Source: a virus
Lineage: Duplodnaviria; Caudoviricetes
DNA: 64,000 nucleotides
IMG/VR virus record: IMGVR_UViG_3300028888_001628
Span: 64,001-128,000 of that record
Strand: one strand, 5' to 3'
Shown here: positions 20,476-63,226 of the stretch, piece after piece
Position numbering within the stretch: position 1 is the stretch's first letter
How the letters are laid out: each line of letters starts with the position of its first letter
The notes under the pieces: generated by a model
Seen by the model: only the letters and a program-made list of their open reading frames with translations
Databases searched by the model: none
What the model was told of the DNA's origin: nothing
Program-made: the position numbers and the translations under genes

Positions 20476-20739
20476 ATGGATAAGAAATTAGAAGCTCGAA
20501 TTGCTAAATTAGAAAGAATGATGAATCGTAAATCTGTTAAGAATGAGCGCCATGGATATGACACTATAAATAAGATTGATGCGGCAGCCGGTGAAGTTAA
20601 GAAGGCTACTCTTAAATTATATCGCCTTTTAGAAAATTTTGATGATGATGGTTTAATGGATATATTTTATAAACTTTCAGTAGCTGCTGATGAAATGCTT
20701 ACTGCTACTGGTGAAATTTTACACGAATACGATGATTAA
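20476..20739 (+). CDS. Small protein with LExRIxxLE leader (putative head-packaged internal protein)
   Basis: MDKKLEARIAKLERMMNRKSVKNE followed by an acidic helical body; GGAGGT RBS. Confidence 0.7.
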   Translation: MDKKLEARIAKLERMMNRKSVKNERHGYDTINKIDAAAGEVKKATLKLYRLLENFDDDGLMDIFYKLSVAADEMLTATGEILHEYDD

Positions 20740-20805
20740 TAAAGTTTATAAAGTACTATTTGAATTAGAGCCTAATTTTATTTTGAGTATATAAAGAGTA
20801 GTGAC

Positions 20806-21084
20806 ATGGATAAAAAATTAGAAGCTCGAATTGCTAAATTAGAAATAGTATTTAAAAGAAAGAATGAATCAACAGAAGATGAAGTAGCACATTCTATATA
20901 TGAAGCGTCTGATAAAATTAGACAGATTGTAAATGATCTATGTAAGACATTGGCATACAGTGATACATTTAATTATAAAGATGCAGATATGGCTCTTCAA
21001 ATTTGTGAGGATTCTTTTTCACAAGACGCGTATCGTAGATTGAGTTCCATTCTAAACGGTAGAATGAATGGTAAAAACTTTTAA
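20806..21084 (+). CDS. Small protein with LExRIxxLE leader (putative head-packaged internal protein)
   Basis: MDKKLEARIAKLEIVFKRKNES; first 39 nt differ from the upstream gene at one position. Confidence 0.7.
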   Translation: MDKKLEARIAKLEIVFKRKNESTEDEVAHSIYEASDKIRQIVNDLCKTLAYSDTFNYKDADMALQICEDSFSQDAYRRLSSILNGRMNGKNF

Positions 21085-21109
21085 TTATAATTATAATTGA
21101 TTAACGAAT

Positions 21110-21141
21110 AACCCATAGTGGATATATATCCACTATGGGTT
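21110..21141. repeat. Perfect 32-bp palindrome (probable terminator)
   Basis: aacccatagtggatatatatccactatgggtt followed by tattt. Confidence 0.8.
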
Positions 21142-21163
21142 TATTTATAATATAGGAAAATAT

Positions 21164-22690
21164 ATGTCAGATAATTATACTTTAACAGATCTCCAGAAAG
21201 AGTCAGTTAAAAGATTACTTTCTATGAAGTCAGCTGTTCTTGCCCTTAGCCCAGGTTGTGGCAAAACGATAACTATACTTCACACTATACAAGAAATAAT
21301 GAAATATACAAATGATAAGTGTCTTTTATTTATTCCGAAGTCAGCACGAGCTGCTTTCATAAAAGAATTGAAAACGAAACTGTGTTTATCAGAGAAAGAC
21401 TATATTTTAATAAAAGCTGGAAAGATAGTTCCATATAGCGAGTTTTCAAAGTATAAATTTATATTAATAGAAAACACTCTTGTAAATAAATATGTAGAAG
21501 ATTTAGTAACATTGGCAAATAATAATGTTTGTCATCTCATAATAGATGAAGCTCACTCTCTTCAGAATCCTGATTCTGTATTCTCAAAAGCTGCATGGGA
21601 AGTTCGCTGTTATTGTAAGCGCATTTACGCAATGACAGCAACACCGCTTATGAACTCTATAGATGGTCTATTTAATTTATATCATTTTGTATTTCCAAGT
21701 GTATTTGTTTCGTGGTATAGATTTAGATCTAGATACTGTATTACAAAAGAAAACATTATTAGAATGAAAGGACGTAATGGAAAAGCAATACAACGAAAAG
21801 TTATAGAAATAGTTGGTTACCAAAACTTAAATGAATTAGTAGAAACTTTAAACAAGTTAACTATAAAGGGATGTGTTCACTATAATGTAAACTTTGAGTT
21901 TTTAGAATGTACTTTAGATGAGCAGAGCGAAAAGCCATATAGATTTGCAGCGTCTGGCTTATTTGATGTATTATATCATCCAGAAAAAGCAAAAGCACGC
22001 GCAAAGATTAGAAAGGCAAACGGTGATAATTCAGGTGAAGATGCTAAAGATTTTGGAAGTCGACTACACGATATACAGCGATGTGTAGATGGGTGCGATA
22101 CAGGTGACACAGATCCTAATTTCATTTCTAATAAAATGAATCTTCTTATAAATAAACTTACTGACATTATGAATAATAATGAATCAACTCTTATATACTT
22201 TGAGTATAAAGATTCATTGGAAATGGCTGAACGTATATTATTAGAAAAGCAAACTGAAATTGGTTTTAAAAAGATATACAGATTAACTGGTGAAGAAAAA
22301 GAAGAGACTCGTGCAAAGATAGAATCTGAATTAGGTCTTAAAGAAATTATATTGTGTAGTCAAGCAGCGTCTCAATCACGTAATTTAGACAGAGCGAATC
22401 ATCTTATAATATTTAACTGTCCGTTCAGTCTAGGTCGCCTTATACAAGTAACGGGTAGAATCTGTAGAGTAAGCAGTACATACGATCATCAAGACATTTG
22501 CATTCTTTCAGTGAAAGACACTATAGATGAATACAAAGTCACTCTATTTAAAGACCATCTTTCACTAATATCGAAATTATTAGGCGATGAAGGTACTGGT
22601 GTTTTGTCAGATTGTGAATATCTAGACATAGATAGGTCTAATTTAAAAGAACTCAAGAATAATTTATTATGGCGTAGAAATAAGAGGTAG
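21164..22690 (+). CDS. SNF2-family (SF2) helicase
   Basis: PGCGKT, IIDEAH, MTATPLMN and Q..GRICR motifs. Confidence 0.9.
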   Translation: MSDNYTLTDLQKESVKRLLSMKSAVLALSPGCGKTITILHTIQEIMKYTNDKCLLFIPKSARAAFIKELKTKLCLSEKDYILIKAGKIVPYSEFSKYKFILIENTLVNKYVEDLVTLANNNVCHLIIDEAHSLQNPDSVFSKAAWEVRCYCKRIYAMTATPLMNSIDGLFNLYHFVFPSVFVSWYRFRSRYCITKENIIRMKGRNGKAIQRKVIEIVGYQNLNELVETLNKLTIKGCVHYNVNFEFLECTLDEQSEKPYRFAASGLFDVLYHPEKAKARAKIRKANGDNSGEDAKDFGSRLHDIQRCVDGCDTGDTDPNFISNKMNLLINKLTDIMNNNESTLIYFEYKDSLEMAERILLEKQTEIGFKKIYRLTGEEKEETRAKIESELGLKEIILCSQAASQSRNLDRANHLIIFNCPFSLGRLIQVTGRICRVSSTYDHQDICILSVKDTIDEYKVTLFKDHLSLISKLLGDEGTGVLSDCEYLDIDRSNLKELKNNLLWRRNKR

Positions 22691-22693
22691 CAT

Positions 22694-24088
22694 ATGTCTT
22701 CTTTTAATAAAAGTTTGTATTGGAAAATTTGTTCATGTGAATCTGCTGAAGTGTCAGACCAGCAGATTAATCAGCGTGCTGAAGAGATAAAGAATGCAGT
22801 TATTAGTAAATGGAAAGAGACGTACTCTAAAAAGAACAAAGATTCTGAACCAACAGAGGATGATCTTTATAAAGCTAATGATACTACAGCAGATGAGCTA
22901 TATAGTGAAGCACAAAAGCAAGCTGAGTCTGAGTTAAATGAAAATAAGAATTCTCTTAAATCAGCATGGCTAATTGGACCATCTAAGGCTATTAAAAGTA
23001 AATCAAAGGGTGCTATCATCGAGTTTGTTAGTAATTCAGATAATCAGCAAAGCAATGATTCAGTCAACGCAAGCGATAGTACTAATAATTCTTCTAACAA
23101 AGATAATACAACTAGTTCTGATAACAATAATAGTAGCACTAATAATTCCAATAACAATCAATCACAAAGTGAGTCATATTCTATTTTAGATTCATTCTTA
23201 GGACTTAATTTGCTTTTAGAAGAGAGTGATGATACGCCTACGCAAGTGAATAACAGAGAAGATGATGATAAAACTGAAGTAAATCCTGCTCCACAGAATA
23301 ACTCTAGTAATACATCATCAGATAGTGTTATTGTTAGAGTTGGTATTAAAGATACGGGCTTTACAGATTGGCATATTAAAATACTACAGCACGTTGATAA
23401 AGTAAAAGGGCTAATAAAAAGAGGTTCTTTTAAAGAGGCATATAATTTAGCAAGTAATAAAATAGACGGTGATGGTATTATTATAAGTAAGGCTGAAACT
23501 TATATTATCAAAAAACAAAATGCGAAAGATATTAATAAAGCGTTTCCACCGTTTATCGGTCATTGTAGATATGCTATAGATGCTGGAACTGTTGATGATA
23601 GTAGAGACTCATCAAATGATGCAAATCTAACAATTTCTTTAGCTGTAGCTCCAATAAATGCAGTTACGAAAAAGCCAAAAGACGGTGCAGTATTTAATAT
23701 GTCATATGATGTAGTTGGTGATATTACAGGTGGAAAAGTTGGCTCAGCTATAGCAAGTATTTCTAAAGCTGTCAGAGATTCATCTGATAATAAAAATACA
23801 TTTGTAAATTCTTTGTTTAATTCAGATGATAGGTATAACAGTGACGATAAAGATAGTGAAACATCAAAAGCGGATTATTTAAGTAAATTTCTTCATAAAG
23901 CATTTAGAACACCGGGTGATCACACTATGTATAGCAACTTTATAGCTATAAAGAAATATATAAAGCAATGCTTAGACAAGAAATTATTACAAGAAACCAA
24001 AGATGGTTATACACTTGGCGGTTCACCGATATCTTCCGAAACATCAATTCCGCCACAGTTTAAGAATAATTGGCTTATCTGGTATTAA
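22694..24088 (+). CDS. Hypothetical protein with Asn/Ser/Asp low-complexity linkers
   Basis: 464-aa ORF with GAGGT RBS. Confidence 0.65.
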   Translation: MSSFNKSLYWKICSCESAEVSDQQINQRAEEIKNAVISKWKETYSKKNKDSEPTEDDLYKANDTTADELYSEAQKQAESELNENKNSLKSAWLIGPSKAIKSKSKGAIIEFVSNSDNQQSNDSVNASDSTNNSSNKDNTTSSDNNNSSTNNSNNNQSQSESYSILDSFLGLNLLLEESDDTPTQVNNREDDDKTEVNPAPQNNSSNTSSDSVIVRVGIKDTGFTDWHIKILQHVDKVKGLIKRGSFKEAYNLASNKIDGDGIIISKAETYIIKKQNAKDINKAFPPFIGHCRYAIDAGTVDDSRDSSNDANLTISLAVAPINAVTKKPKDGAVFNMSYDVVGDITGGKVGSAIASISKAVRDSSDNKNTFVNSLFNSDDRYNSDDKDSETSKADYLSKFLHKAFRTPGDHTMYSNFIAIKKYIKQCLDKKLLQETKDGYTLGGSPISSETSIPPQFKNNWLIWY

Positions 24089-24104
24089 ACAAACTTAATA
24101 TAAT

Positions 24105-24146
24105 TTGTATATATGCAATAGAAATAATTCTCTATTGCATATTTTT
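24105..24146 (+). terminator. Hairpin overlapped by a TTGTATAT motif
   Basis: atatgcaataga / tctattgcatat followed by tttt; TTGTATAT at 24105. Confidence 0.55.
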
Positions 24147-24157
24147 GTAGGTGTAAT

Positions 24158-25651
24158 ATGATTCAAATTGTAAAATCACTTCTCGGAAAAAGTGATATAG
24201 AGTTTAGTAGTGAGCTTCAAATTATTCTATCGCCTGATAATAAAAATATTCTATCAAGTGATGAGACAGACGTATTTAAATATTTAGAAAGAGAGTATAA
24301 TAACAATAAACAATTTCCAACTGCAGAAATATTTCTAACTAAATTTCCACAGTATAGATCACAGTTAGAAGAATTAGATGCTTTTTCGATTGCTGATTTA
24401 CGTTATTATAGAAAGCAATTTATTACAAAGCACCAAAACATTTATAAATCAAAGATCTTACATAAGATGGCGAATGAAGCCGCTGTTGATGGTATTTCAC
24501 CAGAGATGGCAGAAGCTATTCGAAAACAGGCTTCATTTGATAACGAAATAGTAGAAGAAAAGATCTCATTTCGTGAAAGATACCAAAAAGCAATGAAGAA
24601 TAATTCTGGTCTTAAAACTTTTGTAGATCAGATTGACGATGAAATTGGTTCTATTCCTAAAGGTGCCATGTGTACACTTGCAGGATTTACAGGTTCTTTC
24701 AAAACAACTTGGGCTACAAATATAGCAGTAAAGAATTCTCTTCTTGGAAAGAAAATCGCATATATTTCATTAGAAGTATCAAAAGAGCAGTTAGAGTATT
24801 CTATTATTAGTTTGTTTTCAACTGATAATAGATTTACAAGAATGGGTTATCATCCAATCGAGTTAAAGAAGATCATACAAAACAAACTTGATGAAGATGA
24901 ACTTAATTTCTTATGTGATGTGTTAGAGCCTGAATTTAGACGAGTGATAGAGCCTAATTTTAAAATTATAGATCGATCTTGTTTTAAATCATATAGTGAA
25001 AGTGAGTTTGTAGATATATTATATAGAATAGACGATGAGATGCCAATAGATGCGATATTTGTAGATCACGTTGGTGAACTTGCATTACGTAGTCCATTAT
25101 ATAATGGTAATAATACAGGTGCTATTATTAACAAATATGTTTCATTCTTTGGAGAATTAACAGTAGATTTTAGAAAGAAAGATAATGAAAAAAGACAGGT
25201 TGCTACAGTTTTAATTGCTCAAACAAATCGTAGTGGTTGGAAAGAAGCAGCATCTTCATTTAGAAAACTTTCATCAGTTGCTAGACCAGGTGATAAGAAT
25301 AAGTCATTAAACACTCAAGTAGAAGGTTACAGATTAACAGCCTTATCAGACTCAAATGAGCTTGAGAGATTCTCATCTATTGTAATGACTGTATTTGCAA
25401 ATGATTTAATGAAAGAAGCAAGACAGGCGTATGTACAATTATTAAAGACAAGATATGGTAATAATGTATTACCAGTTCCAGTTAATATTTCACCTGAGGT
25501 ATATAGTTTTGGTGGCGATGCAGAAGTTGATGAATCTGAATTATCAGCTGATTTAGTTGAATCTTTATCAAGCTGTTCTATCGCACAAAAGTCAGCTGGA
25601 ACATCTATATATGATGATTCAGCTTTATCTGATGACATATTTGGCTTATAA
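24158..25651 (+). CDS. dnaB: Replicative DNA helicase, DnaB-like (SF4)
   Basis: AGFTGSFKTT Walker A variant, YISLE, IFVDH, AQTNR, SDSNELER and LKTRYG motifs. Confidence 0.85.
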   Translation: MIQIVKSLLGKSDIEFSSELQIILSPDNKNILSSDETDVFKYLEREYNNNKQFPTAEIFLTKFPQYRSQLEELDAFSIADLRYYRKQFITKHQNIYKSKILHKMANEAAVDGISPEMAEAIRKQASFDNEIVEEKISFRERYQKAMKNNSGLKTFVDQIDDEIGSIPKGAMCTLAGFTGSFKTTWATNIAVKNSLLGKKIAYISLEVSKEQLEYSIISLFSTDNRFTRMGYHPIELKKIIQNKLDEDELNFLCDVLEPEFRRVIEPNFKIIDRSCFKSYSESEFVDILYRIDDEMPIDAIFVDHVGELALRSPLYNGNNTGAIINKYVSFFGELTVDFRKKDNEKRQVATVLIAQTNRSGWKEAASSFRKLSSVARPGDKNKSLNTQVEGYRLTALSDSNELERFSSIVMTVFANDLMKEARQAYVQLLKTRYGNNVLPVPVNISPEVYSFGGDAEVDESELSADLVESLSSCSIAQKSAGTSIYDDSALSDDIFGL

Positions 25652-25657
25652 ATATTA

Positions 25658-25685
25658 AATCACCAGTCTAATTAGACTGGTGATT
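25658..25685. repeat. Perfect 28-bp palindrome, followed by ATATCTA at 25691
   Basis: aatcaccagtctaattagactggtgatt. Confidence 0.8.
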
Positions 25686-25724
25686 ACTTTATATCTATAA
25701 TTTTATCGAGATATAGTAATTATA

Positions 25725-26159
25725 ATGGAAGAATCAAATATCATTACTACAAAGCTAGAATTAAACGTAATTGATTACTATTGCACATTTGAATATCTAT
25801 TGGGTTATGTTGGTGTAGAATTTCCATCTACTACTATGACTTGCTATTGCCCATTTCACGAAAACACAAATACAAAAGCTGCAAAACTATTTGTTGAGGA
25901 TCACAATGAGCATATCTTTTGTTTTGCAGAAAACAAACAGTTCAGGCCTCATCATTTATTAACGTATGGAATAGTTCCATTTTCTGTGAATCATGTGTTT
26001 TCTTCTATATGGCAGAACTTATCAGATGAAGAAAAGAATATCTTTTCTGAAGATTTGAGACATTATGATGTTGGAATAGATCTTAGCAAGCCATTTAATG
26101 ATTTTAAAAAATGTAAGATTACATATTTTGATTTATTAAACATTCTTAGGAATTCCTAA
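25725..26159 (+). CDS. Stand-alone primase-type (CHC2-like) zinc-binding domain protein
   Basis: CYCPFHENTNT...HIFCFAE; no TOPRIM domain in 144 aa. Confidence 0.65.
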   Translation: MEESNIITTKLELNVIDYYCTFEYLLGYVGVEFPSTTMTCYCPFHENTNTKAAKLFVEDHNEHIFCFAENKQFRPHHLLTYGIVPFSVNHVFSSIWQNLSDEEKNIFSEDLRHYDVGIDLSKPFNDFKKCKITYFDLLNILRNS

Positions 26160-26176
26160 ATAAGGAGATAGATTCT

Positions 26177-28771
26177 ATGATTAGAATAGATGGTCGTGAA
26201 AGCGCGCATTTACGTTCACGTGTAGAAGATCTTAGTCAGGTGCCAAATTTAGTTAGTTATACAGGTTTGTTTGCAGCTGTTACACCTATACAGACCTCTT
26301 CTGTTACAAGACACGGTGAAGGTGAATATTCATATTATGAACCAGTATTAATTAGAGACGTTGATTCTCTAATTAGTATATTTGGTGATCCACGAATCGA
26401 TCCAGAGAAATATATAGATTTATATAGCATTATGCAGATTATTAAATCTGGTGGTACCTGTTACGTCACAAAAGTATATTCTGGTGATACTAATTGTTAT
26501 GACGTTTATGTATCTGAGAAATATGCACATTTCTATGATAGTGATGAAGGCCCAAGTTTACCAATATCAGGTGGTGGCGGTTCACCTATTTATGTTTTAG
26601 TTCGTAATAAAGACACATGGTATTACAACACAACATCTTCTTCAGGTATTCACGTAGACATTAAAAATAAATATAAAATTTTATCAGCTACTGCTACTAT
26701 TACAAAAAATATTGCAACTCTAGGTACAGCATCAAACACTTTAACATTTACACTTAAACCGGGTGTTACTAATATAAAAAATGTTGCGTGTAGTATTAGT
26801 GGTGGTAAAGCTAAATTGAGCTTACAGGATGCAGTTGGCGGAACACCAGCCACGTTTGAATCATTAAACGACACAATTACTTTAGAACAAATACAAAGCG
26901 CTCCAGACTTTGATACTTATGTTAGTGTAAGTGGCACATCTATTACAGTTTCTAGTACAAAAACTGAACCATTTAGTACAAATTCAAGCGATACAGTATT
27001 AACGCCTGATCAGTTCACTTATACGTTTAATCCAGTGTCACACACTGATTATAATCTTTCATTAAAGATTAATGAAGGTGTTTTAGAAGATACGCCTTCA
27101 GCAATGTCAATCGGCTCTACAGTTTTAGATGAAGATTGGAAAGCTACTGCATTACTTAGCAGTGAAGACCCTTTGAGTTTAACTCCTGAGTCTGACACTG
27201 TTTATAAGACAGACAATATTAAACATAAACTTCTTGTACGTGAGATTAAGAACAATAGTGGAAATGTGATTCCATCAAGCAATTATACTGCTGAGACTAT
27301 TGTAGTTGATCCAGACTCTGAAACACCATATAGAATTGTGGTTACATTTAAAACTGCACCAGGAACTAATCCAATAATTACACAGGTTACACTTTCTGAT
27401 GGGGCAGTCATTGAAGCTGAGTCTACCACATCTGATGTTTTAGACATTACAACAAGTATAACAAGATCAAAGCCATACTCAAGTAAAATTTATTATTACA
27501 ACATGGTTGTAAATTTAAATGATGCTCCACTTTGTTCAGCAAAAGTAAAACTTGACGAAGGTTTGGCAAATGGTACTTTCGTTAACAGTTTAAATTCATC
27601 ACTTCGTCCATATTTACAACTTAGATTAGTTGATCAAGACCCTGCATTATCCACTATTGTGGATCAGATGAGGGATTTGTACATACCTATGTTTGAGGAC
27701 GCGTCTCTTACGAAGATAGTATTGCCAGATGCTACAGTACAGGGTAATGCTGCTACAGATAGTTTTTCAGTTACATTCGATTCTTATATTAACGCTATAA
27801 ATCAATATAAAGATCGCAGATACGCTGGTCGAGTAATGGCTGATCTTACTGCGCCTATTACAAACAATGATGGTGATTTAATACATTTACCTGCTGAAGA
27901 ACGTCGTGCTTTACATTATGCTATTAAAGAAGTTGCAAGTGAACGTAAAGATACTATCGCAGTATTATCAACGCCATACTATGATGGTACTTCTATAATG
28001 AGCTTAGATGATGTCTGCAATTGGGTATCATCCAACGGTAAATACTCAGATCTTTGGGAATATGGTACGTCAAATACTACAGAACCAGCTCAACAAAGTT
28101 TTTATCTTGAAATTTACTATTCATGGTTAAATGTGAAATGTGATAAGTTTAAAGATGGCGTTATTAACATTGGTTCACAGACTGTTTTAACTGCACCTGC
28201 TAATATTGTAGTAAATAATATTTTAACTTCATGGCGTGAGCGCGGTGTTCAATATCCAGTTGCTGGTGATCAGTATGGTGTTCTTCCAAGTTATTGCTCG
28301 GTTGTACAGAATCCAAAACTTAAGTCAGATAGAGACCAGTTAGTTCAGTATAGAATTAATCCTATTTATGATACAGGTACAAGAGGCGTTCAGATTTACG
28401 GAAATGAAACATTAAATGCTGGCTATACAGATCTTAACGCTGCACATATCGCAAGAACTCTTGTTTATCTACGAAGTGCTATCGATGAATATACAGAGAC
28501 TCTAAAATTCTCTATTAACAGTCAGTTCTTATGGGATATTTGGAAAAACTATGTGTCACATAATATTCTAGACCCTCTTAAAACTTTAAACGGTATTAGC
28601 GAATATGAAGTTCTAATGGGCCCAGAAACTACTTCACGAGAAGAGATTGCAAATCGCAGAGTCAACGGTGTTGTCCGTGTGATTTTCTATCAGGCTGCTG
28701 AAATATTCAATTTAACGTACACTGTTTATTCATCTTCAACTACGATCGCTGAAGCAACAGCTAATACTTAA
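26177..28771 (+). CDS. Tail sheath protein (paralogue 2) with a large central insertion
   Basis: LISIFGDP, PVAGDQYG, RDQLVQYRINPI, GVQIYGNETL, HIARTLVYL and AAEIFNLTY sheath motifs. Confidence 0.88.
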   Translation: MIRIDGRESAHLRSRVEDLSQVPNLVSYTGLFAAVTPIQTSSVTRHGEGEYSYYEPVLIRDVDSLISIFGDPRIDPEKYIDLYSIMQIIKSGGTCYVTKVYSGDTNCYDVYVSEKYAHFYDSDEGPSLPISGGGGSPIYVLVRNKDTWYYNTTSSSGIHVDIKNKYKILSATATITKNIATLGTASNTLTFTLKPGVTNIKNVACSISGGKAKLSLQDAVGGTPATFESLNDTITLEQIQSAPDFDTYVSVSGTSITVSSTKTEPFSTNSSDTVLTPDQFTYTFNPVSHTDYNLSLKINEGVLEDTPSAMSIGSTVLDEDWKATALLSSEDPLSLTPESDTVYKTDNIKHKLLVREIKNNSGNVIPSSNYTAETIVVDPDSETPYRIVVTFKTAPGTNPIITQVTLSDGAVIEAESTTSDVLDITTSITRSKPYSSKIYYYNMVVNLNDAPLCSAKVKLDEGLANGTFVNSLNSSLRPYLQLRLVDQDPALSTIVDQMRDLYIPMFEDASLTKIVLPDATVQGNAATDSFSVTFDSYINAINQYKDRRYAGRVMADLTAPITNNDGDLIHLPAEERRALHYAIKEVASERKDTIAVLSTPYYDGTSIMSLDDVCNWVSSNGKYSDLWEYGTSNTTEPAQQSFYLEIYYSWLNVKCDKFKDGVINIGSQTVLTAPANIVVNNILTSWRERGVQYPVAGDQYGVLPSYCSVVQNPKLKSDRDQLVQYRINPIYDTGTRGVQIYGNETLNAGYTDLNAAHIARTLVYLRSAIDEYTETLKFSINSQFLWDIWKNYVSHNILDPLKTLNGISEYEVLMGPETTSREEIANRRVNGVVRVIFYQAAEIFNLTYTVYSSSTTIAEATANT

Positions 28772-28793
28772 TAATATAACTAATTAAAATTCT

Positions 28794-28826
28794 AAACCCT
28801 ACTTTTACAAGTAGGGTTTTTATTTT
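28794..28826 (+). terminator. Intrinsic terminator
   Basis: aaaccctactt / aagtagggttt followed by ttatttt. Confidence 0.8.
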
Positions 28827-28906
28827 GCTTTGAAATAATACATTAAGTTGTAAATAGCAGTTCTGTTATTGTATATTACTATTTATTATTTAGGAGGTAA
28901 TTAGAA

Positions 28907-29215
28907 ATGCAACTATCAGATACAATAGAATTCATGGTCTCAAAAGATTGGAAAGAAAGACTAAAGGCTGAATATTGGCAGACGATGATTCGTGCAGCTA
29001 ATCTAGAGAATTACATAAATCAAGATAACAAAACAGATTCATACGCTTCAGGTGTTGACTTGTTACTGTTGACAGTGCAGAGAGATATTATGTATTCTTA
29101 TTTAACATCTCTATATAATAGAATTATTACGCTTGGTTTGAAAGAATATGTTGATGATACTTCAGATATGTGTAGTGTTGAATCAGTGTGCACTTCAGAT
29201 AATACTAGTGAGTAA
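28907..29215 (+). CDS. Small phage protein resembling the crAss001_48-related family
   Basis: M.SKDWKERLKAEYWQ..IR..L and LL..Q...M..YL..L..R pattern; AGGAGGT RBS; TTGTATAT at 28869. Confidence 0.65.
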   Translation: MQLSDTIEFMVSKDWKERLKAEYWQTMIRAANLENYINQDNKTDSYASGVDLLLLTVQRDIMYSYLTSLYNRIITLGLKEYVDDTSDMCSVESVCTSDNTSE

Positions 29216-29220
29216 TTAAA

Positions 29221-29880
29221 ATGTCTTCTAATAATAACATAAACAGAATTGCATTACTATACAAAGACTTATTATCATCATCTATAAAGCCTCTTAGTGA
29301 ATCAGATAAATCTATACTATTAAATATACAACCAATAAATAAAGTAGTCGCAGTGGGTGATATAGATCTTTCTAACTGGAATGCATATGCTCTTACTTAC
29401 CTCTTACACAATAAATTAGTTGCCCCAGTTGTATTAGATGAATCAAAGATTTATCAATCATGGCACGCGATGCGAACACATAATGAGAAAGTGGCTCATC
29501 CACAAACACTTATAAGTCAAAGTGTTGTTATTAGAATAATTGGCCTTGATAATTCTGCAAACATAAATGACTATATAAATTCTTTTATAAATATGTGTAT
29601 AGCGTCAGATGAATGTAAGCTCATATTTGTAGTCGTAGATGGTAATAAGAAATTCTACAAAGATAATATTTATATTAGAAAATCAAACTCTACATTTATA
29701 GAGACTTCTACTGGAAAACCCTATACAGTTGAAAGTACGCCTTTATGTATTTCACCTGATCAGATAGTGTTCTTTAATAGTAATAAGAAATTACAATCAA
29801 AGTCTACAAAGACAAGACAGATATCTATTAAAAATAGTACATCATGCACTTCAATGTTAGACGATAAAGACTTATTCTAA
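29221..29880 (+). CDS. Hypothetical protein
   Basis: 219-aa ORF. Confidence 0.65.
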   Translation: MSSNNNINRIALLYKDLLSSSIKPLSESDKSILLNIQPINKVVAVGDIDLSNWNAYALTYLLHNKLVAPVVLDESKIYQSWHAMRTHNEKVAHPQTLISQSVVIRIIGLDNSANINDYINSFINMCIASDECKLIFVVVDGNKKFYKDNIYIRKSNSTFIETSTGKPYTVESTPLCISPDQIVFFNSNKKLQSKSTKTRQISIKNSTSCTSMLDDKDLF

Positions 29881-30935
29881 TGGGTTTACAGGCTATGAAA
29901 AATTTACATACATTTAAATATAGACGTTTATACACACTCGAAAGACGTATTAAAGAATTAGAAAGTTTACTATTAGAAGGTAAACGAGATCAAGAAATAT
30001 TAAATAATTTTTTAGGCGATGATTACTATAATAAATTTCAAACTATAAAGAATAAAATAAAAGACCCTGAGTACAAAGATATTTATAAAATAATTAAAAA
30101 GGATCCTGATGATGTAAAGAGTTATATTGACACTATACAATCTTCATCTGACAAGAGGCGTGAGGATAAGAAAGGTGCTCAATTACTATATGAAGATGAT
30201 GACTGGAAAGTATATAGAATAACAACTTACCCAGCAGCTCAATTATATGGAAAGAACACAAAGTGGTGTATTACTGGAAGATATCCTGGCGAGGAAGGTA
30301 AAGGTGAAGAATATTTTAATGATTATATAAATGATAACGATTTAGACGGTGGTTATTATTTTTATTTAAATAAAAAAGATCCATTTGAAAAATATTGCGT
30401 TCTTCAAAAAGATAATGGCAAAATACATTCTATCTGGGATGCGAGTGACTCTAAAAGAGGTTCGTTAAATATAAATATAGGCCTTCCAGAGATACCACAA
30501 GTGAATTTTATTAAATCAACATCAGTTGATTTTGGAGGGTATAAGTGGACTAAGATAGGAGAGTTAAATGGTCACTCTCTTTATCTGTGTTATGGAATAG
30601 TAAGAAATATGGCCTTTAATGATTCAAGTGAATCTAATAAATGGAGTGACTCTGACATTTGTAGATGGTTAAACTCTAATTTTTACAGTACTTTACTCCC
30701 TGATGAAAAGTCAAAAATTATTCCTTATAAAGGAGACAAACTATTCTTATTGTCTAAAGAAGAATATAGAAAATTTGAAAACAATATACCTATTATTGAT
30801 AAATCCTGGTGGCTTAGATCATCAAGCAATATGCTCAACTTTGCTGACTATATTAATTATGATGGTAATGTACGAATTTTCGAAGTCGACTCTGGTAGGA
30901 TAAGTGTCCGTCCAGCTGTTTTATTAGATGATTAA
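29880..30935 (+). CDS. Leader-bearing protein: LERRIKELE leader, YGxxTxWCI domain and DUF6273-like C-terminal domain
   Basis: WKVYRITTYPAAQLYGKNTKWCITG; W.DSDICRWLN..FY, LFLLS, WWLRS, VRPA; ATG 29895 is an alternative start. Confidence 0.7.
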   Translation: MGLQAMKNLHTFKYRRLYTLERRIKELESLLLEGKRDQEILNNFLGDDYYNKFQTIKNKIKDPEYKDIYKIIKKDPDDVKSYIDTIQSSSDKRREDKKGAQLLYEDDDWKVYRITTYPAAQLYGKNTKWCITGRYPGEEGKGEEYFNDYINDNDLDGGYYFYLNKKDPFEKYCVLQKDNGKIHSIWDASDSKRGSLNINIGLPEIPQVNFIKSTSVDFGGYKWTKIGELNGHSLYLCYGIVRNMAFNDSSESNKWSDSDICRWLNSNFYSTLLPDEKSKIIPYKGDKLFLLSKEEYRKFENNIPIIDKSWWLRSSSNMLNFADYINYDGNVRIFEVDSGRISVRPAVLLDD

Positions 30936-30965
30936 GATCTGTTTTAGATATAATGAGGTTAAAAT

Positions 30966-31637
30966 ATGAATCATAAATTAGAAAATCGAATAGCTCGTCT
31001 TGAACGTATTATTAAAAATGAAAAACACAGATTTAAATCTAAATATGTTTATGAGGCTGAACAACAGTCTAATAACAGGATTGAATTAGGTGGTTACACA
31101 TGGACAAAAATAGGAAATATGAAAGGCTATCCTATTTATTTGTGTGATGAGTTTGTACAGTTGATGGCTTTTGATGGAAGAGAAGAATCAAATGATTGGG
31201 AAGACTCTGATATTCGTAAATGGTTAAATTCTGGTTTTTACAATACTCTATCTACAGAAGAGAAATCTGAGATTTCTCCTTTTGAAGGTGATAGATTGTT
31301 TTTATTGTCTGAAGATGAATATGAAAAGTTTAAGGGTAATATATCTAAGATGAATAATTGGTGGTGGCTCAGAACGTCACTTCCAGATTCAAGTAGTGCT
31401 GTTGCGTTTGTTCATCGAGATGGTGATATTGATTATACATATGCTAACTACCCAAAAGCTGGTGTTCGCCCTGCTGTTTTATTAAACGTAGTAGATAGGG
31501 AAAAATTAGACCAGCTGTTAGATAAAATTAGGGATGCTTACGCAAACTACAAGTCACTATGCAATGATTTTATTGATGAGGGTGGTGATGAAGATGAAAT
31601 TGATGGTATCATCCATGATATAAATCAAGTTCTATAA
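30966..31637 (+). CDS. Leader-bearing DUF6273-like protein with an acidic helical tail
   Basis: MNHKLENRIARLERIIKNE; WEDSDIRKWLNSGFY, LFLLS, WWWLRT, GVRPA. Confidence 0.72.
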   Translation: MNHKLENRIARLERIIKNEKHRFKSKYVYEAEQQSNNRIELGGYTWTKIGNMKGYPIYLCDEFVQLMAFDGREESNDWEDSDIRKWLNSGFYNTLSTEEKSEISPFEGDRLFLLSEDEYEKFKGNISKMNNWWWLRTSLPDSSSAVAFVHRDGDIDYTYANYPKAGVRPAVLLNVVDREKLDQLLDKIRDAYANYKSLCNDFIDEGGDEDEIDGIIHDINQVL

Positions 31638-31712
31638 TATAAAAATAGAAAAGTATATAAATTTTATAAATATATAATTGTATATTATTTAAATAAAATT
31701 ATGAGGTAAGTT

Positions 31713-32060
31713 ATGATTAAAAGAAAAGCTACTTTAGAACAACGTATTAGTCGTCTTGAACGTGCATTACGAAAGAATGAAGGTTTTGGTTATAGATTAA
31801 AACCAGGTGATGTAGTTGAAGATGTGGACGGGAGAACAGGTGTTGTTGCTGCAGTTGGCCTAGCTGGAAATCTGTTTAAGAAATTTAGATCTAGATTATG
31901 TGATAGCAGTATTGATGAGATTATGGATCTTATGAGTGAAGATCCAAGTTGGGAATCAATTAGCGATTGTGTTGTAGTTTGTTATGATGACACATCTGAT
32001 ATGGATGGTGGTGATTGTGCTTTATGGACTGATCCTGAAAATGGGTTAGATCTTATCTAA
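31713..32060 (+). CDS. Leader-bearing small acidic protein with an SH3/KOW-like start
   Basis: LEQRISRLERALRKNEG, then LKPGDVVEDVDGRTGVV; TTGTATAT at 31678. Confidence 0.65.
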   Translation: MIKRKATLEQRISRLERALRKNEGFGYRLKPGDVVEDVDGRTGVVAAVGLAGNLFKKFRSRLCDSSIDEIMDLMSEDPSWESISDCVVVCYDDTSDMDGGDCALWTDPENGLDLI

Positions 32061-32093
32061 TCTTACTAAAGATAATTAACATAACAAATAAAT

Positions 32094-32133
32094 AAACCCT
32101 GGTAGTTAATTCTATCAGGGTTTTATTGTATAT
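32094..32133 (+). terminator. Intrinsic terminator followed by TTGTATAT
   Basis: aaaccctggtag / ctatcagggttt (one G-U pair); TTGTATAT at 32126. Confidence 0.7.
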
Positions 32134-32189
32134 TATATATTACAATAAATTACTTATTGCCTTTTAGCCAATTAGGAGTTATAAGAAAT

Positions 32190-34472
32190 ATGGCACCGAG
32201 AAAGAAAAAGTCAGAGTCAGATGAAATTAAAACAAGCCGTGGTAATTATGAGCATTATGTTCCAGCTGTACCGATTCTAGAAAATTTTGAAGAGGTATAT
32301 AAATTACAGTATCATCTTATAAAATCTTATGATGAACTCATGAGTTTTTATAATAATGAGTTTAAACCGAATTCATTCTTTGCATGGGATACTGAAACTT
32401 CTTCATTGGATCCTACTCAATCAGTCTCACGTGGTGACATGGTTGAAGGAAGAATTGTTGGTTATTCATTTACGCAGAATGGTCGCGACGGTTATTATGT
32501 ACCTCTTTGTCACCCTGATTATGCATTAGGATATAAAGCTTTAAAAGTTTTATATGCTATGATCAGTAGATCAAAGCTTCATCTGTTATATAACGCAAGA
32601 TTCGATATGCGCTTTCTTGAGTTTATGACACCTGAGAAATATAATTATGAACCTGAGAAAGATGAGAAAGTTTATAAGTTCGATCTTTCAAATACTAAAT
32701 ATTTCGATGTTCAGTGTTCAGTTTGGTTAGCAGACACGAATGTACCAATGCCTTCATTGAAAAAATCTGAAAAACATTTTCTTGGGTGGAACCCTCCTAC
32801 ATTTTCAGATACAGTAGGTGATGAATCTAACTTTGGGTATTTACCTGCTGAACAAGGATATCGTTATGCTTGTATAGACGCATTAGGTACATATCATTTA
32901 TTTCTAAAGACAGAGAAATATTTAGCTGAATCAGGTGCAGCAGGTAAACTTGATAATGAAGTTCTTTATCCTTTAATGAAGTTAGAGAACACTCCTGTTT
33001 ACATAGATCACGATTATCTTGCTTCTATGAAAACTGATATTAAGAATCACTTGCAAGAATTGAAAAATTATCTCTATGAGCAAGTTGGTGGAAATGAATA
33101 TAATATTAGTTCAGGTCGAGAACTTGTAGGTGTATTTCAGCAGCTTGGGATTGATACAGGCGCAAGAACTGCTACTGGTCAGATGAAAACAGATATTAAA
33201 ACAATCGACAACTATTTAATTACGCACGGCGATAATGAGTATCTTCGAAAACTAATTGAGTATAAGAAATTATTCAAGTTCGATAATTCATATCTTGAGA
33301 CACTTTTAAAAATCTCATCACCAAATGAGATTGAAAAGCATCCAATTAGATTTAATTATTTCACGTGCCGTGTTCCTACCGGTCGTTTAGCGTGTGGTAC
33401 AGATGGAAAGAATTCATTTTTCAGTCCTGTGAACTTTCAATCACTTCCTAAACCACATTCACATAATTATCATGTACACAAAGCAACGCCTGAACAGATT
33501 GCAAATAATGAAGATCTATGTGGTTATATCTTTGATGATAATCCTGAGAATAGTTTAGGTTTAACTGAAGGTCAAGACCCACATTTGAATGTTCGTAAGT
33601 CAATTCGCCCACCTACAAATGATTCAGTAATAGTATCTGTCGATATGAAAGCTGAAGAACTTCGTCTTGCTGCCAATGTATTTAATGAACCTACATGGAT
33701 AAATGCATTTAATACAGGGCAAGATGTTCATAAAATGACAGCAATAAAGATTTTCGGTGAAGAGAATTATTGTAAAGAAGCACGTAAAAAAGCAAAGACT
33801 GCAAACTTTGGAATTCTGTATGGGTCTTCTGCATACGGATTTCATAATCAGTTCCCTGATATGACACTTGAAGAGTGTGAAGACTTTATTGATAAATTTA
33901 AATCTGCACTTCCTTCTATTGAAGCTGCTCAACGAAACGCATTTAGATTTGCAAAAAAGAACGGTTATGTAAAGACTTATTTTGGAAGACCTCGTCGAGT
34001 AAAGTTTTATATAAACAGCTCAAATAGATCGATGCAAGGATTTGCAAAAAGAACTTGCAGTAATACGGTTGTTCAAGGGTGCGCTGGTGACGCGTTAAAA
34101 CTAATGTTAATTAGACTATGGAATGATTTATTTACGAAGTATTATGATAAGGGGCTACGTTGGATTGGGACGATCCATGATGAGATCAATTATCTTGTAC
34201 CAAAGAGTTTAATCGATGAAGTAGTTCCTATTATTATGAAGTGTCAAACTATTAAATTACCTGATTGGCCCGTTGTTCTCGAACCAGATCTTTCTATAGG
34301 TAAATCTTTTGGTGAATTAATTCCATTTAACGTTATTTATAATGAAGATGGTACTGTAAAAGAATTTGTCCCACAAATGGAATCAACTAAAGAGAAAGAT
34401 CTTCATCCAAGTGATTCTGCAATCGATAATTATATACCAGAGATTGAAGATGATTACGATTATATGCAGTAA
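32190..34472 (+). CDS. polA: Family A DNA polymerase with 3'-5' exonuclease domain
   Basis: ExoI DTET, NARFD, YACID; TGRL; motif A DMKAEELR, motif B RKKAKTANFGILYG, motif C IHDEI; AGGAG RBS before ATG 32190. Confidence 0.93.
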   Translation: MAPRKKKSESDEIKTSRGNYEHYVPAVPILENFEEVYKLQYHLIKSYDELMSFYNNEFKPNSFFAWDTETSSLDPTQSVSRGDMVEGRIVGYSFTQNGRDGYYVPLCHPDYALGYKALKVLYAMISRSKLHLLYNARFDMRFLEFMTPEKYNYEPEKDEKVYKFDLSNTKYFDVQCSVWLADTNVPMPSLKKSEKHFLGWNPPTFSDTVGDESNFGYLPAEQGYRYACIDALGTYHLFLKTEKYLAESGAAGKLDNEVLYPLMKLENTPVYIDHDYLASMKTDIKNHLQELKNYLYEQVGGNEYNISSGRELVGVFQQLGIDTGARTATGQMKTDIKTIDNYLITHGDNEYLRKLIEYKKLFKFDNSYLETLLKISSPNEIEKHPIRFNYFTCRVPTGRLACGTDGKNSFFSPVNFQSLPKPHSHNYHVHKATPEQIANNEDLCGYIFDDNPENSLGLTEGQDPHLNVRKSIRPPTNDSVIVSVDMKAEELRLAANVFNEPTWINAFNTGQDVHKMTAIKIFGEENYCKEARKKAKTANFGILYGSSAYGFHNQFPDMTLEECEDFIDKFKSALPSIEAAQRNAFRFAKKNGYVKTYFGRPRRVKFYINSSNRSMQGFAKRTCSNTVVQGCAGDALKLMLIRLWNDLFTKYYDKGLRWIGTIHDEINYLVPKSLIDEVVPIIMKCQTIKLPDWPVVLEPDLSIGKSFGELIPFNVIYNEDGTVKEFVPQMESTKEKDLHPSDSAIDNYIPEIEDDYDYMQ

Positions 34473-56300: not shown

Positions 56301-56316
56301 GATAGGTAAGTGTATT

Positions 56317-56865: not shown

Positions 56866-56870
56866 TTATT

Positions 56871-57089: not shown

Positions 57090-57102
57090 TTCCAAGGTTA
57101 TT

Positions 57103-57282: not shown

Positions 57283-57295
57283 GAGAAATATAAAT

Positions 57296-57886: not shown

Positions 57887-57910
57887 TAATACAAATTGTT
57901 ATAGTTAATT

Positions 57911-57940
57911 AATAGGGCTCGTTTGTGAGCCCTATTTTAT
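57911..57940 (+). terminator. Intrinsic terminator
   Basis: aatagggctc / gagccctatt followed by ttat; TTGTATAT downstream at 57965. Confidence 0.75.
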
Positions 57941-58004
57941 TATGTTACTATAATAAGAATTCTTTTGTATATTAATATACGATCTTATTTGTTAGAGGTT
58001 AGTT

Positions 58005-58304
58005 ATGGCTAAAAAGAAAATAGAAGAAGCTTCTAAGTACAGATTTATGTGCGTGAAGAAAAAGAATGGGAACTATACAAAAGAATTTGAGTCTAAAGAT
58101 GAAGCATTGCAATATGCAAATGAGCTTGACGATAAAGATATAGAGTGGTACGGAATATACGAAGTCAGTCCTTACTCACCGTATCTAAATACTATAGTAT
58201 CTAAAAGGCTTATTCCACATGATCTATGCTATATAGTTCCATCAAATAATAAACCTAGTACAGAAAGTAAAGTAAAGCGATCTAGATCATCTAAAAATAA
58301 ATAA
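58005..58304 (+). CDS. Hypothetical protein
   Basis: 99-aa ORF with GAGGT RBS. Confidence 0.65.
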   Translation: MAKKKIEEASKYRFMCVKKKNGNYTKEFESKDEALQYANELDDKDIEWYGIYEVSPYSPYLNTIVSKRLIPHDLCYIVPSNNKPSTESKVKRSRSSKNK

Positions 58305-58377
58305 AGAGTTATAATAGCAAAGTTTAATGTGGTTTTATTGTGGTTATAATAGTGTGTATATTTTGGAGTCTACATAA

Positions 58378-60414: not shown

Positions 60415-60472
60415 CGCTTGAGTTACTTTTCTGCGGTCATTTAATGCAGTTACTAACATAAACAAACACTTT

Positions 60473-60994
60473 ATGAAGTTGAGATATACTATGAATAGTG
60501 ATCTAGAGTTTAGAGTTTCTAAATTAGAAAGGCTAATCTTACGTAAAATAAAATCTAGTAATCGTATTTTAGAGAAACGTATTGCTAGGCTTGAATCAAT
60601 AAGGTTACCTATTGATTCAAAGTTTGTATATATTATTAATTCAACAATGACTGATAATAATTTCTATTTTATATCTGATGATAAGTCAAAGCTAAAGTCA
60701 TTAATTGACAAAATCACAAAATTATTTTTGGAATCAACCTACTGTGAAGACGATGATGAGCGTGATTTATTGTTTAACAGGATTATTGATTTATGCAAAG
60801 TGAATAATATTCAATACGCTGATGATATAGATGAAAGCCCAATTGTAACATATGCTGAGTATCTTGATTCCATTGGGATTGATCCGTACGAAGATGAATA
60901 TGATAAATCAATAGATCTTGATGAAGAAATTATAGTTGATAATGATAAACCATATACTTTTAAAGTAATTGGTAAACATCACAGTAGATTTTAA
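60473..60994 (+). CDS. Acidic protein with a doubled LExRxxxLE leader
   Basis: LEFRVSKLE and LEKRIARLE in the first 41 aa; ATG 60491 is an alternative start. Confidence 0.65.
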   Translation: MKLRYTMNSDLEFRVSKLERLILRKIKSSNRILEKRIARLESIRLPIDSKFVYIINSTMTDNNFYFISDDKSKLKSLIDKITKLFLESTYCEDDDERDLLFNRIIDLCKVNNIQYADDIDESPIVTYAEYLDSIGIDPYEDEYDKSIDLDEEIIVDNDKPYTFKVIGKHHSRF

Positions 60995-61006
60995 ACTTTG
61001 AAGTAA

Positions 61007-61058
61007 ACCACTGTATGATTCTAATTAAATCTACAGTGGTATTGTTGTATAATATCTA
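61007..61058 (+). promoter_or_regulatory. Hairpin followed by TTGTATAAT and ATATCTA
   Basis: accactgta / tacagtggt; TTGTATAAT at 61045, ATATCTA at 61052. Confidence 0.5.
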
Positions 61059-61103
61059 AACTACTATTATCAATGGGTTTAAATCTTATTAGAGGATTCA
61101 AAT

Positions 61104-62498
61104 ATGAATTATTTAGAAAGAAGATTAAGTATTTTAGAAAGACGGATGATAGAAGCTATTGGTAGTCAGGTAATATCACTAAGCCTTTCAAATATTTCTA
61201 ACTTTTATAAAAGCTATATTAAAGAGAATAAACAAAAAATGATATCCGAGTTAAATAGAATCGGGTATTATGTTTTAAAGAATAAAGTCTCTATTGGAAA
61301 TAGTCCGACTACTACAAAAGATATTCAAATCTGTACTTACTTTGCCAGCATGGATTTTATAGATGAATGTAATGCTGCATTAGCAAATAAGTACAATGTA
61401 AGTGTCGATATTCAGAGTGTAGGTGGATTCTTTGTTCCAGCTACAAATGAATTAGTAGTAATCGTAAAAGTTTATAATGATGATTTAGAAAAATCGTTAA
61501 AAGACGCTGATATCAGATCTACAATAGAGCACGAATTAACTCACGCGTTTGATCACACAAACAAAGATAGAAGATTAGCTGATCAGAATAACGTTCCAGG
61601 TGTAGGTGAGAATTTCTTGTCTATGTGTGCGTATTTAGGTTGCGCTTCAAGATCTGATATTTTCAATCTAATGGGAACTGATATACTGACTAACGGTGCA
61701 GCATCAGAGTGTATTTATTCTATTAGCATTATTTTGTATAAGCTATTTACTATTACAGAATTCAATGCTCACCAGATGTCAGATCTAGACAGTCTTCATA
61801 AAGTAGACATTAATAGATCAGATAGAGTTAGAAAGGCATTACGTAAAGATATCCTAACTGACACGAAATTAACAGAAAGAAATTTAAAGTCAGCTATTAA
61901 AATAACACCTGAAAAATCGCCTGAACTATGGAAGATAGTTGGAAATGTTCTTACATATATGGGCTATAATTTAGACGGTAAATCACCATCTGCAGTTTAT
62001 CAATTCTTTAAACGTGAAAGTAGAAAGCTATTCGATAAATTCATTTCTAGAAAGATGAAGAATCAAGTGAAAGCGATTATTTCTTTACGTGAGAAGAATA
62101 ATTTAAAAGAGAAAATTATTTCTTGTATAAAAAATAATGATATGCAGAGAGGTGTTTCATTTTGGTTTTCTCCATCAGGCGACACAAACTCATATCTGTG
62201 CAGAATTACAGCCTCTACAAGCACTGTAGCACTTACTATTAATCGTGAACGTGTAAAACTATATGGTAATGCAGATGCAATCTATAAACGGGCTGTAGAT
62301 GCAAACAATGATAGAAATAGAGCAGCTTTTGAATTTGCCATAGACAATCTTGTCGATATTATAGTTCAATCTATAGAACGTAACTTTAATGATATTAAAT
62401 ATGATCCTGTTTATGATATTACAATTCCACAGGATGAGTTACAGATTAGTAAATCAAATAAAATCTCTAGTAGATTTGCTGATTTAGACTGGGATTAA
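61104..62498 (+). CDS. Leader-bearing putative zincin metalloprotease
   Basis: MNYLERRLSILERRMIEA; GGFF...STIEHELTHAFD (HExxH at 61530-61544) and a downstream EFNAH. Confidence 0.7.
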   Translation: MNYLERRLSILERRMIEAIGSQVISLSLSNISNFYKSYIKENKQKMISELNRIGYYVLKNKVSIGNSPTTTKDIQICTYFASMDFIDECNAALANKYNVSVDIQSVGGFFVPATNELVVIVKVYNDDLEKSLKDADIRSTIEHELTHAFDHTNKDRRLADQNNVPGVGENFLSMCAYLGCASRSDIFNLMGTDILTNGAASECIYSISIILYKLFTITEFNAHQMSDLDSLHKVDINRSDRVRKALRKDILTDTKLTERNLKSAIKITPEKSPELWKIVGNVLTYMGYNLDGKSPSAVYQFFKRESRKLFDKFISRKMKNQVKAIISLREKNNLKEKIISCIKNNDMQRGVSFWFSPSGDTNSYLCRITASTSTVALTINRERVKLYGNADAIYKRAVDANNDRNRAAFEFAIDNLVDIIVQSIERNFNDIKYDPVYDITIPQDELQISKSNKISSRFADLDWD

Positions 62499-62504
62499 AT
62501 TAGA

Positions 62505-62978
62505 ATGCTTAAATACGTACCTGAAGATACATTAGTATGCTTTTCTGAAATTAAATCAGAGATATCACTTGGGATTAATATCAGTGGTTGTCCGCATAGA
62601 TGCCCAGGATGCCATAGTCAATACTTACAAACAGACATTGGTGAAGAATTAACTACTGATATTATAGACAACCTAATAAATAAAAACCAGGGAATAACGT
62701 GTGTATTATTCCTTGGTGGTGACGGTGATAAGTGTACTTTAATTAATTTAGCAAGATATATAAGAAATAACTATGATTTATTAGTCGGATGGTATAGCGG
62801 TGATTCACATATAGATCTAAATGAGTACGGAAGGTACTTTGATTATATTAAAGTAGGTCCGTATGTAAAAGAATTTGGGCCACTAAACTCACCATCCACT
62901 AATCAGCGATTATACTTTATTAAAAGAAATAATGGCTCAATATCTGTTGAAGATATCACATCTTCTTTTTGGAGGTGA
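62505..62978 (+). CDS. nrdG: Anaerobic ribonucleotide reductase activase (radical SAM)
   Basis: SGCPHRCPGCHS (CxxxCxxC), FLGGD, DYIKVGPY and STNQRLY motifs. Confidence 0.92.
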   Translation: MLKYVPEDTLVCFSEIKSEISLGINISGCPHRCPGCHSQYLQTDIGEELTTDIIDNLINKNQGITCVLFLGGDGDKCTLINLARYIRNNYDLLVGWYSGDSHIDLNEYGRYFDYIKVGPYVKEFGPLNSPSTNQRLYFIKRNNGSISVEDITSSFWR

Positions 62979-62980
62979 TT

Positions 62981-63226
62981 ATGAATAAGAAATTAGAATC
63001 AAGAATTGCAAGATTAGAAAGAATGATGAATCGTAAGTCGGTTAAAAATGAATCTATGCTTACTAATGATCTAAATAAGGTTGTTCGCAGTCTTTCAATG
63101 GCTGATAGAGTACTTGTTGAACTTGTCAATGATTATTATGGTACTGATAATCCAATGAGAGATAGATGGAATTCAATGGCTAATCAGATTGAAGATATGA
63201 TTAGTGAGCTTAGAGGGATGGTCTAA
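62981..63226 (+). CDS. Small protein with LExRIxxLE leader (putative head-packaged internal protein)
   Basis: GGAGGTG RBS; MNKKLESRIARLERMMNRKSVKNES, 21 of 24 leader residues identical to 20476. Confidence 0.72.
   Translation: MNKKLESRIARLERMMNRKSVKNESMLTNDLNKVVRSLSMADRVLVELVNDYYGTDNPMRDRWNSMANQIEDMISELRGMV

Follow-up and report, generated by a model that had tools for sequence, protein, structure and literature searches.

The window analyzed here is a 64,000-nucleotide stretch (bases 64001–128000) of one 155,974-bp phage contig with a G+C content of 31.7% (IMG/VR record IMGVR_UViG_3300028888_001628). It contains eight genes whose proteins begin with the same short peptide, built on the motif LExR[IVL]xxLE, and then differ. 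This leader, or tag, is the subject of the present work. The phage is detected in sheep and goat gut metagenomes only and is uncultured. The original prediction, made from the letters of the DNA, took the leader for a capsid-targeting address that is cut off in the prohead. The eight genes and nine motif copies it named are all in place, on the + strand and in clean open reading frames (ORFs; Table 1). We favor, with a probability of roughly 0.55, the reading that the leader is a capsid-targeting propeptide like that of T4, built on a coiled-coil motif of the trimer type; that the proteins are packaged, cleaved and injected is predicted from sequence.

A shared leader on unrelated proteins

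A six-frame scan of the window with the strict motif returned nine copies, all inside the eight genes, and no further match in any frame. The whole 156-kb genome has 18 copies, against 0.01 expected from its composition, and 2000 per-protein shuffles gave a mean of 0.01 and a maximum of 1. Sixteen of the 18 copies begin at residues 4–27 of their protein. When conservative single-position changes are allowed, the leader is found within the first ~30 residues in 19 of ~194 called genes. It is 17–25 residues long, except in g112 (33 from the annotated start) and in g137, where the double tag is uncertain. The leader is basic in 16 of the 19 proteins (isoelectric point (pI) 8–11.5), and the predicted mature bodies are mostly acidic. 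Past the leader the proteins diverge, as had been claimed. The 19 leader-stripped bodies fall into 14 families without mutual BLASTP similarity, and the eight window proteins represent seven BLASTP-unrelated families.

Judged from its sequence, the leader is a basic two-heptad amphipathic helix with an R-h-x-x-h-E motif. All 19 leaders, as well as the C-termini of the head-module proteins g092 and g095, fit the pattern Arg(g)-h(a)-x-x-h(d)-Glu(e), with I, L, V or M at h(a) and L, I or V at h(d). R-h-x-x-h-E is a determinant of parallel three-stranded short coiled coils (PMC3653964), which agrees with the trimer-specifying role it had been assigned. Among PDB sequences, a GCN4 variant comes closest to a leader and has the identical nine-residue pattern, but the match is not significant (E value 0.29). 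A literature search on motif strings returned c-Jun and coiled-coil papers only. The published trimer determinant and the GCN4 variant would also suit another function, that of a general, uncleaved trimerization module (N-terminal, C-terminal or inter-domain) that raises the avidity of binding domains and loads nothing into capsids. A coil of two heptads would be a short one for a structural neck standing on its own, and we consider such a module unlikely on the evidence taken up again below.

The codons of the leader vary and the DNA upstream of it is not common, so it is conserved as a peptide and not as DNA. The invariant Arg is encoded by AGA in 9, CGT in 5, CGA in 4 and AGG in 1 of the 19 genes, and the second Leu of the motif by TTA, CTT and CTA. 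No common DNA was found upstream of the 19 tagged genes. Selection therefore acts on the peptide. A nucleic-acid element (a translation initiation region or a recombination cassette), with the peptide as a by-product, would account for the nearly identical ~40-nt leader of g103 and g104 and for the swapping of bodies there between strains. The mixture of AGR and CGN codons, the three Leu codons and the lack of anything common upstream make it extremely improbable, and an RNA- or DNA-level element was rejected on the codon variation across the 19 genes. The near identity of the leader DNA in these two adjacent genes points to recent copying.

The leader is a trait of one uncultured clade, as far as sequences in the databases tell. 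Seven IMG/VR contigs encode a capsid protein 63–83% identical to that of the phage (g090). The back-translated DNA pattern of the motif has 15, 6, 14 and 4 matches in four larger related contigs, compared with 0–1 for the reversed control. As in the phage itself, they fall near the start of varied proteins, within the prohead protease, and at the C-terminal ends of the homologs of g092 and g095. The nearest cultured phages are Listeria LIS04, Streptococcus GXN1, and Bacillus HSE3 and SP-15, with ~30% capsid identity. In LIS04, GXN1 and HSE3 the DNA pattern has 1, 0 and 1 matches, with Phe or Ser occupying motif positions in the two stretches that match. A tblastn search of 50,697 deposited phage records with a 24-residue leader gave no match. 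The limitation to one clade follows from the lack of the tag in the three cultured phages and in the deposited phages. Within the clade, tagged genes are less conserved than the rest: 42% versus 66% are matched in the nearest relative, with a mean identity of 44% versus 60%.

The bodies behind the leader are of several kinds. The DUF6273 domain (PF19789) proposed for g112 and g113 is present, at 36.2 and 51.7 bits, respectively (cut-off 23.5). The g113 body is C-type-lectin-like; its best Foldseek match is a Thomasclavelia ramosa IgA peptidase domain (E value 7e-7), and the next is the Legionella Lcl C-terminal domain. For g138, described as an HExxH protease, the HExxH motif stands, and the protease assignment does not reach significance: the Tox-MPTase2, M76 and M13 matches (E values 0.01–0.06) lie below cut-off, and the only lead for this body in Atlas is LPD23 at 0.87. 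Pfam, PHROGs and Atlas returned nothing for the g114 body, which had been called SH3-like. The small bodies are acidic as described, with predicted mature pI values of 4.1–4.7, and five tagged proteins have acidic helical bodies of 46–71 residues. Ankyrin repeats occur in four tagged proteins (five with g041, an unscanned paralog of g040). The remaining tagged proteins have no family, and no replication, nucleotide-metabolism or tail annotation was found among the tagged set. An effector or anti-defense role of these bodies is conjecture.

Table 1. Window coordinates of the tagged genes and of the head-module genes
Gene	Product	Length (amino acids)	Position	Strand	Features
g089	prohead protease, S77/gp21 family		9423..10406	+	tag-like F-E-S-R-I-R-T-L-D, residues 204–212 (10032–10058); conserved xNE|S/N in C-terminal part
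g090	major capsid protein, Gp23 family		10399..11874	+	predicted propeptide cut KNE|S, residues 52–54 (10552–10560)
g092	clade-specific head-module protein	309	12392..13321	+	near-invariant KNE, residues 192–194; C-terminal tag-like motif (13259–13285) and basic tail
g095	very acidic scaffold-like protein, pI 4.3	143	14459..14890	+	KNE|S, residues 24–26; invariant C-terminal motif (14810–14836) and basic tail
g103	tagged	87	20476..20739	+	leader residues 1–24 (20476–20547), ends KNE; predicted acidic body of 63 residues
g104	tagged	92	20806..21084	+	leader residues 1–21, KNE end; first 39–40 nt nearly identical to g103
g112	tagged	351	29880..30935	+	motif from residue 20; leader end LLE, then GKRDQ; C-terminal DUF6273
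g113	tagged	223	30966..31637	+	leader residues 1–19, KNE end; DUF6273 body, C-type-lectin-like fold
g114	tagged	115	31713..32060	+	leader residues 1–23, KNE end; body without recognized family
g137	tagged		60473..60994	+	two tandem motif copies; likely start 60491 (better family fit)
g138	tagged	464	61104..62498	+	leader residues 1–17, MIE end, then AIG; HExxH in body
g140	tagged	81	62981..63226	+	leader residues 1–24 (62981–63052), KNE end

Head genes and the glutamate that ends the leader

The head genes of this phage are of the T4 type. The capsid protein g090 scores 121.5 bits with Pfam Gp23. The protease g089 matches Peptidase_S77 with 49.4 bits (cut-off 27) and PHROG 207, ‘head maturation protease’ (E value 1e-39); in its alignment to T4 gp21 (5jbl; E value 3e-4) the catalytic His and Ser line up. 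Residues 52–54 of g090 are [K/R/T]NE followed by S or A, kept in 8 of 8 genomes. The xNE site lies 24 residues before residue 78, which aligns to residue 33 of mature T4 gp23, and it is thus where a propeptide cut is expected. We predict that the g090 propeptide is cleaved there, at KNE|S. The prohead proteases of T4, phiKZ, 201phi2-1 and SPN3US cut C-terminal to Glu (PMC5694885). The internal proteins of T4, as well as Alt, enter the core by a 10–20-residue N-terminal capsid-targeting sequence (CTS) that gp21 later removes (PMC5694885, PMC3012670), in line with what the original prediction had recounted of T4 internal proteins. Two further ORFs lie among the head genes, a Cys-rich one of 68 amino acids between the capsid gene and g092 (window 11975–12181) and one of 146 amino acids inside the head module (window 13337–13777) with weak endonuclease VII-like PHROG matches (E value 0.002). 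Both may be remnants of mobile nuclease genes.

The leader ends had been quoted correctly for the window genes: five end in KNE, and the others have LLE|G, MIE|A and RLE|S. Across the 19 leaders, KNE occurs no more than 14 residues past the motif in 8 (background 0.4% per window of this kind, P 3e-15) and NE past the motif in 10 (P 2e-8), P values that overstate independence because several leaders are paralogous. KNE or NE follows at five different spacings, so leader and NE are not simply one inherited block. Leaders without KNE have mostly hydrophobic-x-E ends. The proteome holds 15 KNE tripeptides, of which 8 are past leaders, 3 in the capsid propeptide, g092 and g095, 1 at residues 7–9 of g043 and 3 elsewhere. 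The rule also holds in the relatives, where NE follows 13 of 18 N-terminal tags, as counted by hand. The protein g043 (402 amino acids; genome 32122–33330, before the window) is encoded beside tagged ankyrin genes. It has no coil motif but starts with nine residues of which the last three are KNE, perhaps a short propeptide in the style of T4.

Many sorting and processing signals in general take the form of an N-terminal peptide that is common to several proteins and carries a cut site. The leader might then address its proteins to some other intracellular assembly, to timed proteolysis by a host or phage protease, or to a modifying enzyme. This is very improbable in our view: the leader site matches the site of the capsid propeptide, the leader has no hydrophobic or secretion-type segment, and the prohead protease is the only protease found among the scanned proteins.

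A capsid-targeting propeptide is also consistent with the modular behavior of the leader. In metagenome proteins, at least four bodies unrelated to one another occur behind an identical leader of 24 residues, and the similarity stops at KNE. In the paralogs g044 and g065 and an ortholog, the leaders differ in length and similarity resumes right past the Glu, with the same pattern in the g112 and g138 families. The sequences at which it resumes are [A/S]KQVG, GK[R/H]DQ or AI[G/S]SQ. A DNA contig from an independent sheep-gut sample matches g103 over its leader, up to and including the final base of the KNE codon, beyond which it has a g104-type body. The leader DNA therefore acts as a recombination site between strains. 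DUF6273 homologs 45–50% identical to g113 do not have the tag, and bacterial homologs bear other N-termini. In the single-chain AlphaFold model of g113, a leader helix (residues 2–31; predicted local distance difference test (pLDDT) 47–68) is followed by a low-confidence stretch and a body with pLDDT >90.

Head and tail genes, together with the tagged g103/g104, g112 and g113–g114, are represented by contigs from three RNA libraries of sheep gut (window 13000–32900). The phage was present, and possibly active, in the sheep sampled; depth in these libraries cannot rank genes and DNA carry-over is possible, which makes the contigs unusable as co-expression evidence. One RNA-library contig also ‘goes back’ between the g103 and g104 leaders (window 20476–20909).

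The T4 late-promoter box TATAAAT(A) was considered and dropped, as it is not enriched upstream of tagged genes. A recurrent TTGTATAT(A/C/T) box occurs in many + strand intergenic regions, often just past a terminator-like hairpin, for example upstream of window positions 8623, 12392, 24158, 32190, 51364 and 61104. It is probably the main non-early promoter element of the phage. Because it stands before genes of every class, be they head, tail, replication or tagged genes, expression timing is unreadable from promoters.

Motif copies outside the leaders

Outside its training set, the leader profile matches only three proteins: g158, and g092 and g095 at their C-termini. With a relaxed pattern, residues 204–212 of the protease match as well, at 0.8 chance matches expected per proteome. 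The original prediction had expected such a scan to find N-termini and the C-termini of core proteins only. The N-terminal hits and, if g092 and g095 are core proteins, their C-termini agree with this; the internal copies in g158 and the protease, and C-termini of non-head proteins in relatives, do not.

In five to seven relatives, the tag-like segments are the most conserved parts of g092, g095 and the protease. In the protease copy, Asp replaces the motif Glu, and this copy does not vary among seven genomes. Behind it lies a helical C-terminal part whose conserved xNE|S/N would fit a C-terminal self-cleavage site as in related proteases. In g095 the motif and basic tail are invariant in six genomes, and the remainder, which holds one to three KNE|S sites, is variable, extremely acidic and of low complexity. 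The family of g092 occurs in this clade only, with 13 representatives among 1.8 billion proteins, and the AlphaFold model of g092 (pLDDT 76) gave no Foldseek match at an E value ≤0.001. Neither g092 nor g095 matches a Pfam or PHROG family.

The C-terminal copies could also be partners of a docking adaptor that fixes interchangeable binders on the exterior of the virion (head, neck or whiskers). In this it would resemble exchangeable tailspikes, whose N-terminal anchor modules are conserved. The partner-like motifs sit in the head/neck gene module, the bodies include lectin-like and ankyrin binding domains, and the PHROG ‘Hoc-like head decoration’ weakly matches the DUF6273 region (E value 8e-7). 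We nevertheless judge an exterior adaptor to be quite improbable. The motif is on the protease, an internal core enzyme, and g095, with its KNE sites, resembles a disposable acidic scaffold and not a surface protein. The five small acidic helical bodies are unlike fibers, and a Glu site past the leader would be pointless.

The protein g158 (genome 136791–137420; window 72791–73420, past the window end) has a minimal nucleotidyltransferase (NTase)-like domain (Pfam NTP_transf_2, 23.7 bits) fused in frame to the tag. Relatives encode such fusions at G003:C1:7480–8928 and G001:C1:193983–194864. The bodies behind NTase and tag are g112-like plus ankyrin, g155-like, or a short hydrophobic tail. Since the domain, the tag and varying bodies are fused in frame, the tag is also an inter-domain joint. 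Such N-termini are compatible with long propeptides as in phiKZ-like phages; they suit a general trimerization or docking module equally.

For the uncleaved trimerization module introduced above, the position of the motif after the NTase domain and at C-termini is a point in favor. Lectin-like and ankyrin bodies are also the kinds of domain that gain from trimerization, and the C-type-lectin-like DUF6273 body has weak, non-significant Foldseek rows that include collectin neck-plus-lectin trimers. What the module leaves unexplained is the KNE of the capsid propeptide after leaders at variable spacing, a similarity break that always falls at the leader Glu, the tag-free close homologs of the same body, and the copies on the protease and two head-module proteins.

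A candidate packaging system and its parallels

If the leader is a capsid-targeting propeptide, its action can be outlined as follows. During assembly of the prohead core, the leaders of ~19 accessory proteins would pair, in short coiled coils of mixed composition, with other copies of this module. The docking copies would be the one on the prohead protease and those that end two head-module proteins, of which one is very acidic and scaffold-like. After shell closure, the S77 protease would cut past the Glu at the leader end (xNE or hydrophobic-x-E), as for the capsid propeptide. The freed bodies (ankyrin, C-type-lectin-like DUF6273, HExxH and small acidic) would stay in the head and exit with the DNA. 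The original capsid-targeting interpretation is partly supported: the T4-type head genes, the xNE site, the modularity and the motif copies on head proteins all fit it, but the motif is not strictly N-terminal.

Several observations weigh against this outline, beyond the paralogy of leaders that inflates the P values. Eleven of the 19 leaders are without KNE, and their hydrophobic-x-E ‘sites’ are a loose pattern. An avoidance of KNE outside tags and head proteins was dropped as an argument, since the relatives G001 and G003 do not have such depletion. The motif follows an NTase-like domain of ~115 residues in g158 and in two proteins of relatives, and it is found at the C-termini of several non-head proteins in relatives. 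The candidate label ‘scaffold/core’ for g092 and g095 rests on gene position, composition and KNE sites, because the two proteins have no recognizable family or fold. A coil joined to a lectin-like or ankyrin domain is the design of trimeric binders that are never cleaved. Finally, the phage is uncultured and known from sequence alone.

A more specific form of the proposal is a programmable packaging code. One coil peptide, carried by the protease, two core or scaffold proteins and ~20 exchangeable cargos, would zip the cargos to the core, and they would be freed in the head at xNE. We regard this form as tentative, with somewhat less than an even chance. If it is true, about a tenth of the phage genes encode proteins delivered with the DNA, and a docking partner for the T4 CTS is supplied; to our knowledge, that partner has never been defined. 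The capsid-targeting reading, if true, would mean that T4-type heads have a second way of capsid targeting, unrelated to the first in sequence, in which docking is by coil pairing with scaffold and protease. A phage could then devote ~10% of its genes to packaged cargo. The ~14 families of probably injected rumen-phage proteins, including ankyrin and lectin-like binders, would be candidates for early host takeover or anti-defense, and the leader would offer a very short, well-understood peptide for loading foreign proteins into phage heads. If the reading fails, one trimerization module across a tenth of a proteome is still an unusual case.

The closest known parallel is the CTS system on IPI–III and Alt of T4. 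A capsid protein of the gp23 type and a protease of the gp21 family are common to T4 and this phage. In both, unrelated, fast-evolving accessory proteins have a short N-terminal leader that ends at a Glu, as gp21-type proteases require, with cleavage predicted here. Leader-flanked genes are exchanged between strains in both. Unlike the T4 CTS, the present leader is a canonical R-hxxhE coiled-coil motif and its preferred site is xNE, and we know of no sequence likeness between the two. It is carried by ~19 proteins (one gene in ten), whereas T4 tags four or five. The module is also present on the protease and two head-module proteins here, which suggests a defined docking partner.

In the giant phages phiKZ, 201phi2-1 and SPN3US, a protease related to that of T4 processes many of the proteins inside the head, cutting after Glu (PMC5694885). 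The prohead protease of giant phages cleaves its own C-terminal part, and conserved N-termini of paralogs are thought to be CTS-like (PMC5694885). Their propeptides are mostly longer than 100 residues and without a common motif, in contrast to the one short common tag seen here. The long NTase-plus-tag N-termini of the g158 kind may be the nearer parallel. In coronin, engineered GCN4 and cortexillin variants, the motif lies within a longer structural coiled coil, whereas here it forms what is predicted to be a two-heptad detachable tag.

Encapsulin cargo-loading peptides are another case in which a short terminal peptide directs diverse cargo into an HK97-fold shell. Those peptides attach to the shell protein itself, sit at the C-terminus as a rule and stay uncleaved. 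Unlike these, the tag of this phage would have the scaffold and protease core as its partner and is probably removed. The principle of a conserved CTS on diverse, fast-evolving internal proteins is known from T-even phages. New here are the tag as such and its coiled-coil logic, how many genes carry it, which proteins are its candidate docking partners, and the kinds of cargo.

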